Source: a virus (lineage: Duplodnaviria; Heunggongvirae; Uroviricota; Caudoviricetes). Taken from it: a stretch of DNA of 41,644 nucleotides. The position numbers and the translations under genes were made by a program. The stretch lies in IMG/VR virus record IMGVR_UViG_2617271072_000007; one strand, 5' to 3'. Positions 32,475 to 38,183 of the stretch are shown here, piece by piece; within the stretch, counting starts at the first letter, position 1; each line of letters begins with the position of its first letter. The notes under the pieces were generated by a model. That model was not told where the DNA came from. It saw nothing but the letters and a program-made list of their open reading frames with translations, and did no database searches.

Positions 32475-33116
32475 ATGTCACAGCCCGTATTAACTAATCA
32501 CCTTAAAACTCAAATCATCAATAACGCACTTGAGAAAGCGGGTATTCCCAAACGTAAATCAGCACTACGAGCTACTCGTGTTGAATGGGCCGAACGTGTT
32601 CGGCTTGCAGCTATCGGGGGCGTAGAGAAAGAAGCTGAAATATTAAAAAATATAAAAAGATTGAATCCATGGTCACAAAAATCCTCTGATTCATTAAAAA
32701 CCAATAGTTCTTTAATTCGAAAAGATTGCTGCATATATCTCAATCTGGCTGGAGCCAGAGCAAACATTTATTTCAATGGCAACTACAGAGGTTATGAATC
32801 AGGAGCCCCCGAGCATATTAATAAAATAGCACCTGCAGAATTTACTCTACTTGGCGAAGATCCTCTGGTAACGGAGTTTTATAGCTTTGATGCTCTCTAC
32901 ACACAAATTAAAAGTGATGAAACCGAAATCATACAGAACGTCAGCGCGGCTCTAAATAAAGTTCGGACAGTAAAACGATTACTGGATGTATGGCCCGAAG
33001 CTAAAGAACTGCTTCCAACAGACGCACCGCCAGTCCCTTTAGCACCAGCAGTACATCGAGAGACATTAAATGAAATGATAGGCCTTCCTACCAATACAGT
33101 GTCTGATACTCAATAA
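32475..33116 (+). CDS. hypothetical protein, AT-rich
   Basis: 213 aa from MSQPVLT with RBS GAGGGA; track ORF 32445..33116 starts at an upstream GTG. Confidence 0.5.
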   Translation: MSQPVLTNHLKTQIINNALEKAGIPKRKSALRATRVEWAERVRLAAIGGVEKEAEILKNIKRLNPWSQKSSDSLKTNSSLIRKDCCIYLNLAGARANIYFNGNYRGYESGAPEHINKIAPAEFTLLGEDPLVTEFYSFDALYTQIKSDETEIIQNVSAALNKVRTVKRLLDVWPEAKELLPTDAPPVPLAPAVHRETLNEMIGLPTNTVSDTQ

Positions 33117-33799
33117 CAAGGGGGATGCTTATTATATGATTTTGAACGTTTTACAATCTCGTTAAGAGGCGTGAAATCAAAATCTCTGAATAACACATCA
33201 GGATACTTCGCTCTTGCTTTATCCAGCAGACCAGTTAAAGTATTTTTTGTGTTACCCAACATTGTATTAACCGCCACTACATGTCTAATTTCTGGAGGTT
33301 TATCTATACCACCAGAAATTGCTTCATTAAGAACCGACGCCAGTGGGGTTTGTCCCTTACTTGTTGAATCCCACAGCGTCATTAACAGACGAGCTGCGTC
33401 TATAAATAGCTTTTTGTCAGCATTTGGCTTGACAGTAATACCAGAACTACCTGAGCCAGAACCGGAACGTTCTATTGCTGCACTGGTATCCGATTTCATA
33501 GGATTAAATAACGGCAGCTCTGTACAACCGATACGCCGAATGAAATCCTTTGCAACATCTCTACCACAGAAAAAAGCCCCTGTACAATTTTCATCAGAGC
33601 GTTTTTTAAATGAAAAACAATAGTACTGATCGGTTAACGGATAACCGGAATAACTGGTTTTAGTTTGTCCAGTAATAAGTTTCAGGTGTGCAACAGGCTG
33701 AATAATAAAATCCCGAACTATCGCATCTTTTATGTCGTTACCACGGTGACAATAATATTCAGGTAATCCATTAGGCTGTCTCTTATTACCCACAGTCAT
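33110..33799 (-). CDS. hypothetical two-domain protein, AT-rich, antisense to the operon
   Basis: 229 aa; Cys/His-rich N-domain, SGSGSGSSG linker, C-domain; convergent 7-nt overlap with the preceding gene. Confidence 0.55.
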   Translation of the reverse strand: MTVGNKRQPNGLPEYYCHRGNDIKDAIVRDFIIQPVAHLKLITGQTKTSYSGYPLTDQYYCFSFKKRSDENCTGAFFCGRDVAKDFIRRIGCTELPLFNPMKSDTSAAIERSGSGSGSSGITVKPNADKKLFIDAARLLMTLWDSTSKGQTPLASVLNEAISGGIDKPPEIRHVVAVNTMLGNTKNTLTGLLDKARAKYPDVLFRDFDFTPLNEIVKRSKSYNKHPPCY

Positions 33800-33860: not shown

Positions 33861-35924
33861 ATGTCCAATATACTATGGGGCGACCTGGAAACCTATTGTG
33901 ACATTCCGATCAACAACGGTACCCATGCGTATGCCGAAGGCGTTGAAGTGATGCTTTTCGCATGGGCTATCAACGACGGGCCAGTAAACGTGTGGGATAT
34001 CACTGCCGGTGGTGGTATTCCACACGGCTTATACGAAGCAATCGCAGACCCTGAAACCCTGCTTTATTTCCATAACTCTCACTTCGACCGCACCGTTCTG
34101 CGTTATGCAATGCCGCGACTGGCACCGCCAGTCGAACGTTGGCGCGACACGATGGTGCAGGCGCTGGCGCACGGTCTCCCGGGGTCTCTGGGGGAACTCT
34201 GCGAAGTACTAGGCGTCCCGCAAGACAAAGCGAAGGACAAAGAAGGTAAAGCGCTGATCCAGCTGTTCTGTAAGCCACGCCCGAAAAACAGCAAACTGCG
34301 TCGGGCCACCAGTAAAACCCACCCGGAAGAATGGCGGCGCTTTGTTGCTTACGCCGGACTGGATATCGAGGCAATGCGCGAAGTCTATAAACGTCTGCCG
34401 AAGTGGAATTATCAGGGGACAGAACTGGCGCTCTGGCATCGTGATCAGCAGATCAATGACCGGGGCGTCTGCATGGACATGCAACTCGCACGCGCTGCGA
34501 TCGAAGCGGTAGACCAGGAACAAAAGCGCCTGGCAAAGCGTACACAGGAAATGACTGATGGCGAAGTGCAGGCAGCCACACAACGAGACACGTTGATTAA
34601 GCACATTGTTGAATCCTACGGTGTGGAGCTACCAGACATGCAACGCAGTACTCTGGAACGTCGTATTGCCGACCCCGATTTACCATCTGCCGTGAAAGAA
34701 CTGCTGGCTATCCGACTGCAGGCCAGTACTACCAGCACCAGTAAATACAAGGCACTGATGAAAGGCGTAAGCCACGACGGGCGCTTACGCGGTACGCTAC
34801 AGTTCTGCGGGGCGTCACGTACCGGTCGTTGGGCCGGACGGCTATTCCAGCCCCAGAATCTTCCCCGCCCTTCACTAAAACAGGAACAAATAGACGAAGG
34901 CATCGAAGCACTGAAAGCCGGATGTGCAGACCTGCTGTTTGACAATATCATGGAACTAACCAGTTCAGCGTTACGTGGCTGCATTATCGCGCCAACAGGC
35001 AAAAAACTGGTGGTAAGTGACTTGTCGAACATTGAAGGCCGTATGCTGGCATGGCTGGCAGGAGAAGAATGGAAACTGAATGCATTCAGAGAGTACGACG
35101 CCGGAACGGGTTCGGACTTATATAAACTGGCGTATGCAAAAGCTTTCGATATTGCACCAGATGATGTTGATAAACACATGCGTCAGATCGGTAAAGTCAT
35201 GGAGCTCGGTCTGGGTTATGGTGGTGGTGTATCGGCTTTCATCACTTTTGCGCTGGTTTACGGTCTCGATCTCGACGAGCTGGCGAACGCCGCACTGCCA
35301 AACATTCCCCGCGATGTTATCCGCGAGGCGAAAAGCTGGTACGACGAATCGGTTAAACGCAAGTCAACCTACGGGCTTTCTGAACGGGTATTTATCGCCT
35401 GCGACTCACTTAAACGTCTCTGGCGCAGGGCGCACCCGGCGACCTGCGATTTCTGGTACGAACTGGAGCGCACCGTCCGCACAGCAATCGCCACACCGCA
35501 AAAAACATTGTATTGCGGCTATCTTAAAATCCGACGTGATGGCGCGTGGCTGCGCATACAGCTACCATCCGGACGCGCTGTATGCTACCCGTCTCCGGTT
35601 ATCGAAAAAGGGAATATCACCTACATGGGTGTTAACTCTTATTCGCGTAAATGGCAACGACTCAAAACCTACGGCGGAAAGCTGGTGGAGAACGTCACCC
35701 AGGCAGCCGCCCGCGACGTTCTGGCCGGAAACATGCCGCTTATCGAAGATGCCGGTTACAGCATTGTGTTGACGGTACACGACGAGGTGATCACCGAAGC
35801 ACCTGACACAGAAGATTTCAACGATAAAGCGCTTTCCGCGCTTCTCTCCACTAACCCCGAATGGGCACCCGATATTCCGCTGAATGCTGGCGGCTTTGAG
35901 GCGTACCACTACCGTAAGGAGTAA
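33861..35924 (+). CDS. family-A DNA polymerase with 3'-5' exonuclease domain
   Basis: 687 aa; DLETY exonuclease motif, [11 protein letters not shown] (motif A), [12 protein letters not shown] (motif B), VHDEV (motif C). Confidence 0.9.
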
Positions 35925-35931
35925 TACAAAG

Positions 35932-36960
35932 TCACTTAAAATCCCTAGATAACATCTGCGAAGCAGCTGATGCTGTATAAACTCCAGTATGTTTTATTTC
36001 TGCAGCTATTTTGTAGCCATCCTCCTTAAACTGCGTAAGCATTGAGCTTAAGGAACCAAGTTTTTTAGTATTCAACACCATTCTAACGACAGTTCCTTCA
36101 TGATAATGACCTAACTCTATATGCTTCTTTCCGTGTTCATCTAGATATATTGCATGGTCACCGCTACAAATAAGAAAACTACCGCCAAGTTTACATATAC
36201 GGCTGATCATATAAAGGCCAAATCCCGAATTATGCCAAGGATTTCTTGTATTGATTCTCGCCCCCTTAAAATTTTTACTAGAAATAGATGGCATTAACGC
36301 TAACTGAATGGCTTCAGAATCATTATCAGCTTCTATATAAGGGTTCTTCGATAGAGATTTTTTCATTCCTATACCATTATCAGAAATTGTTATTTCAACA
36401 CGGTCATAAGAAGGCCAATACTGTGCACAATATTCAATCACCTTTGAATCACTATGTTCCACAACATTACGCATAATTTCCCTAATAGAAAATGTCAAAG
36501 CATCAATGAGGTCGCCTTCTTCTTGGCGAGCAAGAATCTTTGCTAATTTACCAGATCGTTCCTCAACTATCTCTTGCACCTCAGTATATTTATCGTTAGC
36601 TTCATCTATAACTGTTTGAACACGAAGAATTGTAAATGGAACAAAATTATTATTTCCATCTGTACATCCCGGTTCACGGCCATGCTTTAACCCGAAGGCT
36701 CGAAAGAATGCCATATTTGCGGCATAATCCTTATTCTCATGCCCGCTACAAAAAAGTTTAAAACCATCAATGTTCTTTTTCTGTTTTCGATGGAAGTCTC
36801 GAATATGCTTAGCAACATAAACCATTGTAAATGGTTCAATCCTTCCCATATGCGAAAAATCGATTGTTATTTGCTGTTGACCTGAATGTTTTTCAATTTC
36901 ATTGCAAAAATTAAATATCTTTTCAGGATTACATGAAGAGGGAAATAAGATTCGTGACAT
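35932..36960 (-). CDS. GHKL-type (histidine-kinase-like) ATPase with unknown N-terminal domain; cargo gene
   Basis: 342 aa; N-box NVVEHSDS, G1 DNGIGM, G2 GFGLYM; AT-rich; opposite strand to the operon. Confidence 0.65.
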   Translation of the reverse strand: MSRILFPSSCNPEKIFNFCNEIEKHSGQQQITIDFSHMGRIEPFTMVYVAKHIRDFHRKQKKNIDGFKLFCSGHENKDYAANMAFFRAFGLKHGREPGCTDGNNNFVPFTILRVQTVIDEANDKYTEVQEIVEERSGKLAKILARQEEGDLIDALTFSIREIMRNVVEHSDSKVIEYCAQYWPSYDRVEITISDNGIGMKKSLSKNPYIEADNDSEAIQLALMPSISSKNFKGARINTRNPWHNSGFGLYMISRICKLGGSFLICSGDHAIYLDEHGKKHIELGHYHEGTVVRMVLNTKKLGSLSSMLTQFKEDGYKIAAEIKHTGVYTASAASQMLSRDFK

Positions 36961-37020
36961 ATTAATTCCTTATACTTGTTTTATTTGATACTACCCAATA
37001 AGTGTTAACAAGGCAAATTT

Positions 37021-37308
37021 ATGTCTTATGAACGTGAGAGCCTTATCGAAAAGCACCTCGTCGCTGAAGTGAAAAAGGCTGGCGGTGTGGCCTTTAAGTT
37101 CGTATCTCCCGGTCGCCGCTCGGTACCGGATCGCATTGTTCTGCTACCCGGCGGCCGTCTTGTTTTCGTTGAATGCAAAGCACCCGGCAAAGCACCACGC
37201 GCCGACCAGTTGCGCGAGCACGAGCGGCTGCGCGAGCTGGGCTTTACCGTGGTGGTGCTGGATAGCAAAAATCTGGAGGAAATTATTTTAAGCCGCAATA
37301 AAAGATAA
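37021..37308 (+). CDS. VRR-NUC nuclease
   Basis: 95 aa; PDRIVLLPGG ... FVECK PD-(D/E)xK core; GC-rich. Confidence 0.75.
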   Translation: MSYERESLIEKHLVAEVKKAGGVAFKFVSPGRRSVPDRIVLLPGGRLVFVECKAPGKAPRADQLREHERLRELGFTVVVLDSKNLEEIILSRNKR

Positions 37309-37320
37309 AAGACTTATGCT

Positions 37321-37905
37321 TTAATCCGTATTTTTAACACGTGTTTCGAAACACTCTTTTAATTTAGCTATTTCCTTTTTAGAGGACATAACTGTGAATT
37401 TCATCCCTTTTAAATCATTAACAAATTCAAATTTTGCGCTATTGGACTCACAATCACCAACAACAAAACCACTACCAAATGAATTGAGCAACACTTTAGT
37501 ATTACTACCATCTACCATATAATATTCGTTATTTTTAAATGCAGTAACCTTCCCGAAGGTATAGCTCAATATCAATAATGTCATCACCCCTAAAGGAAAA
37601 GCTGATTTTAGGATTTTTAAATCGATATAATAAAATACGTCTTTATACTCTGCAAGCCTCCCAAACTTTCTAATGCTATCCATATGATGTTCGTGTCTCT
37701 TACTATGGATTGACGCGGACACCGCATTGTGGTAATTCAACAAAAGCAGAGCAAATAATAAAATATCTCCAACACTCATCACAGAGGTTTCGGAGAAATA
37801 ACCAAAAGGCCAATGAAATCCTATTATGTAAAAATTAGGTATTAGCATAACCACTATAAATATAATAAATGGAACATAATATTTCCCTTTCAAATCAAAC
37901 ATCAA
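37321..37905 (-). CDS. membrane protein, AT-rich cargo
   Basis: 194 aa; three N-terminal hydrophobic helices plus about 80-aa soluble domain; likely ATG at 37902. Confidence 0.6.
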   Translation of the reverse strand: MMFDLKGKYYVPFIIFIVVMLIPNFYIIGFHWPFGYFSETSVMSVGDILLFALLLLNYHNAVSASIHSKRHEHHMDSIRKFGRLAEYKDVFYYIDLKILKSAFPLGVMTLLILSYTFGKVTAFKNNEYYMVDGSNTKVLLNSFGSGFVVGDCESNSAKFEFVNDLKGMKFTVMSSKKEIAKLKECFETRVKNTD

Positions 37906-38183
37906 TGTCGCGTATAAGGCACCGAGAAATAAAAACTAAAAAACAAAAGCCATACAGCCGAATACAATAGCGTATTTAAATCTATTTTAATAAAAAAGGG
38001 CTGGATAGCCATAATACGATGCAACACCTTTCTGAAAAGAATATGCCATCGCATAAGCTAAACGCTGAAAAAACAGTTAATAAAGAAACTTGTTTTGTAA
38101 GTATTTTTGCCAGGGGCATACCCGCCTCCGTTAGTTATATATATAGAGAGAGAATTGACACATATTCTACCATAGGTGTATTA

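Follow-up and report, generated by a model that had tools for sequence, protein, structure and literature searches.

CapK and VapK are GHKL serine kinases that couple the sensing of DNA damage to immunity through a separate STAS substrate. CapK, an HTH-STAS-GHKL protein activated by ssDNA, acts on the STAS-wHTH repressor CapS, whose Ser54 it phosphorylates (Chambers et al., EMBO J 2026, PMC13373217), and this phosphorylation de-represses adjacent immune operons (PMC13373217). VapK, which consists of STAS and GHKL domains, phosphorylates Ser48 of the STAS antitoxin VapS; this frees the PIN toxin VapC and confers about 2 logs of protection against phage Bas42 (PMC13373217). In the characterised relatives the phosphate goes to a STAS domain, where helix alpha-2 has its N-terminus, and the active-site asparagine that was mutated is N218 in CapK and N160 in VapK (PMC13373217).

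The stretch of DNA analysed here (hereafter the window, 41,644 nucleotides) constitutes an entire prophage, some 40 kb long, whose integration site lies between yfhL and yfhH; it is 99.9% identical to one in Escherichia coli MINF_2E. One of its genes encodes a STAS-GHKL protein belonging to a much larger sister family of these kinases, with hundreds of clusters at 50% identity spread over prophages, islands and plasmids across phyla, which has lost, or never had, the separate STAS substrate. CapK and VapK are already known; what is new here is a VapK-like kinase that lacks a partner and carries a conserved C-terminal tail, and the large uncharacterised family that it represents. What, then, does a partner-switching kinase phosphorylate when it has no partner? 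The serines of the tail offer a testable answer, and if the family does protect against phages, it would constitute a widespread single-gene system missing from current catalogues.

The STAS-GHKL Gene and Its Product

The gene and the parts of its product are as follows.

35932..36960, minus strand: complete STAS-GHKL gene, 342 aa with an ATG start (ORF list)
35932..36960, minus strand: the same product as RefSeq WP_021529153, labelled "ATP-binding protein"; the identical gene is annotated in E. coli MINF_2E
36622..36960, minus strand: N-terminal STAS domain, aa 1–113, beta-alpha-beta-alpha-beta-alpha-beta
36511..36621, minus strand: helical linker from STAS to GHKL, aa 114–150 (model helices 114–123 and 128–144)
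36070..36513, minus strand: GHKL (Bergerat) ATP-binding/serine-kinase domain of SpoIIAB/RsbW type, aa 150–297
36445..36480, minus strand: N-box E161-x3-N165-x2-E168-H169-S170-x-S172 (REIMRNVVEHSDS), a signature common to VapK and CapK
36364..36381, minus strand: G1 box DNGIGM, aa 194–199, with D194, G196 and G198 invariant
within the GHKL domain, aa 199–245: long ATP lid, preceding the G2 box
36208..36231, minus strand: G2 box N244-S-G-F-G-L-Y-M251, with G246 and G248 invariant, W242 and N244 nearly so
35935..36069, minus strand: family-specific C-terminal extension, a long helix (aa 304–323) and a tail helix (aa 330–341)
within this extension: conserved tail motif A-S331-x-A-S334-x-M-L-x-x-x-F

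The antisense ORF of 342 aa given in the initial annotation of the window matches the ORF list exactly, and the three motifs on which that annotation based a complete Bergerat fold are all present in the translation, at aa 165–172 (NVVEHSDS), 194–199 (DNGIGM) and 246–251 (GFGLYM). It is clearly a real gene, with 552 homologues, many of them full-length at high identity (the best 120 are full-length at 63–99%), which is far beyond chance. Both of the checks proposed for GHKL membership support it. Pfam HATPase_c covers aa 155–295 with 32.5 bits, above its gathering score of 26.4 bits (E 1.3e-7), and the confident AlphaFold2 model (pLDDT 94.2, pTM 0.92) contains the Bergerat alpha/beta sandwich. 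The N-terminal domain, which the annotation could not place, has a STAS fold. PHROG 3364, of unknown function, spans the whole protein.

Other searches were less informative. NCBIfam kinase models matched only about 45 residues of the N-box/G1 region, far under their cut-offs, neither the protein nor its profile found anything useful in sequence searches of the PDB, and a viral fold search of BFVD gave weak partial matches only. Pfam detected neither an HTH nor a HisKA family in the protein, whose chain opens directly at strand beta-1 of the STAS domain. The features of a two-component histidine kinase are likewise absent, with no DHp/HisKA domain (Pfam) and no regulator gene nearby.

Conservation was assessed in an alignment of 64 family sequences. 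Within the N-box, E161, R164, N165, E168 and H169 are invariant. The tail comes close to this level: S331 is present in 59 of the 64 sequences and S334 in 62, the other two having threonine, so that both serines are nearly as conserved as the catalytic residues. In the model the tail has a pLDDT of about 78–87, and isolated beta-bridges assigned by DSSP involve residue 209 in the ATP lid and residue 328 just before the tail.

Relationship to VapK and CapK

The CapK and VapK sequences used for comparison were those of Appendix Table S2 of PMC13373217, in which residue numbering equals NCBI numbering plus 5. With hhalign, the broad family profile aligned to the VapK family profile at 99.1% (E 1.3e-18) over 276 columns, positions 1–315 against 5–296, while the close-family profile reached VapK with 85% probability. 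Against single-sequence targets, the E-values were 1.6e-10 for VapK (239 columns) and 1.6e-6 for CapK (118 columns; hhalign 90%). Judged from these alignments, the protein is a true homologue, closest to VapK. That it belongs to the CapK/VapK superfamily, has an intact ATP site and is mobile accessory cargo is near certain.

With VapK it shares collinear STAS and GHKL domains, the G1 and G2 boxes, the lack of an HTH, and mobile or defence-associated settings, even though identity is only about 17–22% and the helical linker aligns loosely. The N-box pattern E-x3-N-x2-(E/D)-H-S-x-S is common to all three proteins (WEIYxNAFEHSxS in VapK, SELIGNVRDHSES in CapK), and N165 aligns with CapK N218 and VapK N160. 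The resemblance to CapK lies in the order of STAS and GHKL, in a Y-x4-G-F-F element and in the N-box/G1 motifs, the match covering only aa 74–207. Three differences stand out. CapK has an N-terminal HTH, whereas the window protein has none by Pfam or in the model. VapK ends where its GHKL domain ends, whereas the window protein continues for some 45 residues with the conserved A-S-x-A-S tail. Finally, CapK is always followed by capS and lies upstream of an immune operon, and the VapK operon contains vapS and vapC, while the STAS-GHKL gene has neither capS nor an immune operon, and neither vapS nor vapC adjoins it in any of the 32 loci surveyed.

The residues by which VapK contacts ssDNA differ as well: F54 and K180/K181 correspond to R40 and S184/Y185 in the window protein. 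Across the alignment, position 40 is W/F/H in 37 of 64 sequences and R in 11, and position 185 is K/R in 33 of 64. The window clade, a single lineage, looks like a swap in which R40 goes with Y185, and the chemistry of the STAS/GHKL groove fits nucleic-acid binding. That ssDNA or another nucleic acid is the cue for this protein is speculative and somewhat unlikely; the VapK contacts are not conserved as such, so the trigger could differ.

Serine Kinase or ATPase

The best structural match of the GHKL domain is SpoIIAB/RsbW, which it resembles in being a compact kinase domain without DHp or transducer, although sequence similarity to these proteins is negligible (PDB sequence searches). SpoIIAB/RsbW are serine kinases that act as anti-sigma factors, and their STAS antagonists SpoIIAA/RsbV are separate proteins, whereas the window protein fuses both folds in one chain, and no sigma factor or PP2C phosphatase partner is present here. 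The compact SpoIIAB-like domain, the lack of a transducer domain and the homology to proven kinases are the grounds on which we consider it likely that the protein is a serine kinase and not an ATPase. The alternative would be a GHKL ATPase, for example a MORC/MutL-like clamp or switch on DNA. This is quite improbable: only a 45-residue helical tail follows the Bergerat fold, with no transducer or second domain, the MORC-type Pfam family HATPase_c_3 gives no match, and the closeness in structure to SpoIIAB is accompanied by significant homology to VapK and CapK.

If the protein is a kinase, its own STAS domain does not seem to be the substrate. E42-P43-F44 sits where VapS has S48-P49-F50, with a helix beginning at residue 43 in the model, and position 42 is E in 33 of the 64 sequences and P/T/G/S in the rest. 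The family profile gave no significant alignment with VapS or CapS, and the equivalence of E42 to the phosphorylated serine is positional only. In this respect the protein differs from STAS domains of the SpoIIAA/RsbV type, which carry a phospho-Ser where it has Glu-Pro; such a residue at the phospho-serine position indicates that its STAS domain is not a substrate, like the internal STAS domains of CapK and VapK.

The tail is another candidate. In the AlphaFold2 model S331 stands at the N-terminus of the tail helix, which would be the same setting as that of the phospho-serine in STAS substrates, and the beta-bridges of residues 209 and 328 suggest that the tail packs beside the active site. 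On conservation and modelled position, the tail serines can be put forward as the phosphate acceptor, a speculative possibility that we rate as somewhat unlikely.

A Probable Kinase Without a Neighbouring Partner

Does a partner lie next to the gene in other genomes? ORFs were called around 32 copies from different species and all neighbours clustered. No neighbour recurs in these 32 loci apart from the kinase gene itself. Neither a sigma factor nor a phosphorylatable STAS antagonist was found in the window, in the prophage annotation or in the 32 loci. The annotation of the prophage lists no STAS or PIN gene, and no sigma factor gene lies nearby. Two more specific arrangements were considered and rejected. 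A two-gene system with the gene located 99 bp downstream in Shewanella and Pseudomonas fails, as the downstream proteins are unrelated and without Pfam domains, and the 3′ flanks are unconserved. A fixed operon with variable effectors fails too: defence genes independent of the kinase (RT, Shedu, AIPR) follow it in some loci and housekeeping or unassigned genes in others, and the window has the convergent polA in this position. In one lineage, on the Phaeobacter plasmid pP129_f (L043 6170–8014), the kinase gene starts 7 bp after the end of a 272-aa hypothetical gene, which may be an operon partner there; an N6-methylase lies nearby.

MlaB and the STAS domain of DauA are housekeeping STAS proteins. 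Together with CapS/VapS-like regulators or antitoxins of the host, they would be the candidate targets if the kinase is an orphan that works in trans, on STAS proteins from other loci, and so rewires a host pathway. The idea draws on the absence of a cis partner in the 32 loci, on a kinase domain structurally closest to SpoIIAB/RsbW, whose substrates are STAS proteins, and on the STAS substrates of all characterised relatives (PMC13373217). The very different hosts of the family, however, would not share a specific CapS or VapS, and a tail conserved throughout the family suggests a built-in element; we consider the trans reading decidedly unlikely.

The Family and Its Genomic Settings

When the profile was searched exhaustively, 2,415 representatives clustered at 50% identity were recovered, and for 460 the E-value was below 1e-30; nearly all of these relatives are 330–345 aa long and match end to end. 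Hosts include Gamma-, Beta- and Alphaproteobacteria, Chlorobi, Bacteroidota and a Firmicutes phage, with 63–75% identity within the family across classes and phyla. Outside prophages, the neighbours include Zorya II with RM (Shewanella) and Gabija (Pseudomonas), as well as DRT-type reverse transcriptases, a GHKL-Shedu protein, AIPR, SoFic, pAgo and Schlafen-like genes. The Methylophilus copy is found alone between hemH and LPS genes, a housekeeping setting. More distant full-length relatives are again carried singly: an Acinetobacter plasmid of 6.8 kb has one next to BrnTA, and others come from a Phaeobacter plasmid of 15 kb and a Coprococcus phage.

The initial annotation had held that single GHKL proteins of this layout belong to no defence system that could be named. 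As regards catalogued systems this stands: the proposed PADLOC check (PADLOC-DB v2.0.0) gave no full-length match to any system protein model, the sole hit being a local 29-bit match of aa 66–223 to positions 65–207 of the 1750 of DrmA (PDLC02567). As regards the literature, the statement has been overtaken by the 2026 work on CapK and VapK. Searches by accession, PHROG identifier and architecture found no description of the STAS-GHKL family, and the stand-alone gene is not reported in the recent defence-discovery papers searched; the GHKL protein of the WASA V. cholerae paper is a Shedu nuclease fusion of unrelated layout. The local match to DrmA implies that such a STAS-GHKL module is fused N-terminally in some DISARM-type helicases, and one relative of 699 aa (P0121) has an uncharacterised N-terminal extension of 360 aa.

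PcrA/UvrD Tudor domains are RNA-polymerase-binding modules, and the SSB tip is a module that binds SSB clients. Both kinds of element recur in the family. About 7% of its representatives add a C-terminal Tudor domain of UvrD/PcrA type, recognised by Pfam PF21196 in P0154 and by the motif G-x-R-V-x-H-x2-F/Y-G-x-G-x-V in ten others, and in four or five members the chain finishes with an acidic D-(L/I)-P-F tip similar to the C-terminus of SSB. This suggests that sister clades are recruited to RNA polymerase or to SSB-client proteins, and the presence of these modules hints that the family works at the replication or transcription machinery. Sequences carrying a Tudor domain or an acidic tip are P0144, P0147, P0154, P0160, P0165, P0168, P0172, P0192, P0195, P0209 and P0232; P0136 and P0210 are also listed among these sister-clade members.

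An RNA-polymerase-binding module raises the idea of an anti-sigma factor or RNAP-directed regulator that binds a sigma factor or RNAP of the host and reprograms transcription, as lysogenic conversion or as takeover, its kinase activity being secondary. For the window protein this is improbable. It has no Tudor domain and no sigma factor gene nearby, its nearest homologues, VapK and CapK, are kinases acting on STAS partners for which sigma binding is unreported, and the strict invariance of the ATP-binding residues argues for catalysis and not for binding alone.

The Prophage Cargo Slot and the Spread of the Cassette

The early region of the prophage encodes DUF2800, DUF2815, Nmad5, a family-A polymerase, VRR-NUC and a SNF2 helicase, and the STAS-GHKL gene lies in a slot defined by three features.

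33861..35924, plus strand: family-A DNA polymerase gene, polA (Pfam DNA_pol_A)
35913..37020, no strand: swappable cargo segment, the polA/VRR-NUC slot; sibling prophages lose homology at 35912/35940 and regain it at 37021
37021..37308, plus strand: VRR-NUC nuclease gene, divergent from the STAS-GHKL gene (RefSeq annotation; weak Pfam match)

The gene opposes both polA and VRR-NUC, as had been claimed, and it is indeed AT-rich, with a GC content of 0.35–0.36 over 36001–37000 against about 0.50–0.57 in polA and 0.48–0.55 in the helicase gene. The two flanking genes, on the other hand, are not normally adjacent, as the initial annotation had supposed: between them, siblings hold ANR and DUF4406 (L003), or a TIR gene (PDC-S35) with ANR and a small ORF (L002). 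The comparison of related prophages that had been called for shows that the STAS-GHKL gene is not a core gene, its siblings carrying other cargo at the same place. Since they do so and homology breaks at its edges, the slot is a cargo hotspot, for which the STAS-GHKL gene is one of several alternatives. The suggestion of an inserted accessory gene is right in that the gene is mobile cargo; it is not a simple insertion, since it replaces other cargo (35913–37020). Related prophages were found in 162 of 5,426 complete E. coli genomes, and polA/VRR-NUC is a mapped, swappable cargo slot of this common E. coli prophage family. The STAS-GHKL gene itself occurs in only 11 E. coli genomes, eight times in this prophage (at least 99.8%) and three times elsewhere (86%).

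The TIR protein of the slot (L002 3629–4390) corresponds to the PADLOC candidate single-gene system PDC-S35 (E 7e-109). It is, like the STAS-GHKL gene, AT-rich accessory cargo of the same variable slot in the same prophage family, but the protein and its chemistry are unrelated, and its gene is co-oriented with the operon whereas the STAS-GHKL gene is antisense. The TIR gene fills the slot in many siblings as well as in the induced phages vB_EcoM-606R2/689R2/611R5.

In a Serratia quinivorans prophage of the same type, a 75%-identical copy is found in the same place and orientation, and the two prophages are collinear over polA, the STAS-GHKL gene and VRR-NUC at about 69% nucleotide identity; the gene is therefore an old resident of one sub-lineage. 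It has also left the prophage. In E. coli ET490, E. coli TUM14664 and a Kluyvera strain it lies in a different island, and these island copies retain about 96 bp of the polA 3′ end, homology in L004 spanning 35836–37016 of the window. In ET490 (L045) the island is at tRNA-Thr and a frameshifted VRR-NUC fragment, a pseudogene, adjoins the STAS-GHKL gene; a PDC-M40B-like gene, IS elements and dptF/dptG stand beside the cassette (L045 6999–15027). Such decay of the flanks around an intact ORF argues for selection on the gene itself. Two proteins of 426 aa and 370 aa, without Pfam domains, accompany it in the tRNA-Thr island and are seen in the integrase-bearing islands (L045, L004, L013).

Expression

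Two putative expression signals precede the gene.

36988..37016, minus strand: candidate sigma-70 promoter TTGCCT, 17 nt, TAGTAT (8/12 match)
36967..36971, minus strand: Shine-Dalgarno sequence AAGGA, 6 nt 5′ of the ATG, kept in aligned copies

The candidate promoter, with its 8/12 match, fell below the 9/12 cut-off of the promoter scanner. Its hexamers and spacing are kept in the ET490 and Kluyvera copies (TTGTCT, 17 nt, TAGCAT), and the homology of the captured cassette stops exactly at 37016, that is, at the −35 element. The gene begins 60 bp from the divergent VRR-NUC start; at its other end, 7 bp separate its stop codon from that of the convergent polA, and this gap contains no terminator-like element. 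Given this convergence without a terminator, lytic transcription of the replication operon would cross the gene in antisense, and the layout appears to be that expected of a cargo gene expressed in the lysogen.

This bears on whether the gene could serve the phage as counter-defence. Its product would then be a decoy, resembling the CapK/VapK-type sensors of the host but without partners, and would absorb the activating signal or mis-phosphorylate host regulators to the benefit of the phage. That a phage carries a homologue of host immune sensor kinases devoid of output partners is what such a decoy would look like. Opposing the early lytic operon without a terminator is, however, a lysogen-type layout and not that of an early anti-defence gene, and the gene has outlasted its decayed phage flanks as an intact ORF, both in chromosomal defence islands and on small plasmids. 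A decoy function is very improbable.

A Working Model

Taken as a whole, the best explanation is that of a stand-alone CapK/VapK-like kinase, expressed in the lysogen, which senses a cue, phosphorylates serine and so brings about protection or a stress response; we place this full chain of events slightly below an even chance. In the lysogen, the gene would be driven by its own weak sigma-70 promoter, and in lytic growth this transcription would be opposed by read-through from the converging replication operon. The cue may be infection or DNA damage, probably as nucleic acid bound in the STAS/GHKL groove, by analogy with CapK and VapK, and the response would be serine phosphorylation. With the separate STAS substrate missing, the phosphate could go to the protein's own tail (S331/S334) or to some conserved protein of host or phage. 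The lysogen would thereby be shielded from superinfecting phages, or a stress response would be set off; we consider a role in defence or stress response in the lysogen plausible, at about even odds. Several observations speak against this explanation besides the altered ssDNA contacts: PADLOC offers no model for the protein beyond the local DrmA match; conservation in the family is unusually high (63–75%) for immune proteins, which often diversify; the surroundings at several loci, such as hemH/LPS in Methylophilus, are ordinary housekeeping genes; and the promoter is a weak match that the scanner did not report.

A bolder form of the same idea, which we deem unlikely, would place the logic of CapKS and VapKSC in a single chain, a one-protein immune or stress sensor in which a nucleic-acid cue lodged between the STAS and GHKL domains turns the kinase on and infection is arrested. 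The phosphate would then go to the protein's own A-S-x-A-S tail or to a universal replication or transcription protein, and the Tudor domains and SSB-like tips of the sister clades would be address labels for that same machinery.

Other Variable Sites of the Prophage

Further sites of variation were noticed around the slot. An AT-rich antisense ORF of 229 aa (33110–33799, minus strand) lies between Nmad5 and polA; it has no match in Pfam, PHROGs or NCBIfam and only a marginal one to IetA in PADLOC. In the TIR-variant prophage an unrelated 209-aa ORF occupies its place, which therefore looks like a second variable slot. Downstream of VRR-NUC, at 37321–38118 on the minus strand, the window has an interrupted version of the gene for the 265-aa hypothetical protein WP_021529155 of MINF_2E: three 1-nt indels, all in T-runs, reduce it to a 194-aa ORF and fragments; this could reflect sequencing error, decay or phase variation. 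Other siblings have a different 195-aa ORF at this site, pointing to a third variable slot. A functional link between the STAS-GHKL gene and the antisense 229-aa and 265-aa ORFs was considered and rejected, both being also present in TIR or DUF4406 prophages that lack the gene, and neither having family matches. Lastly, at the left end of the window, the tail-fibre end (L041 40157–41891), a pinE-type invertase gene stands beside opposed tail-fibre and tail-fibre-assembly genes, a layout typical of an invertible host-range switch.
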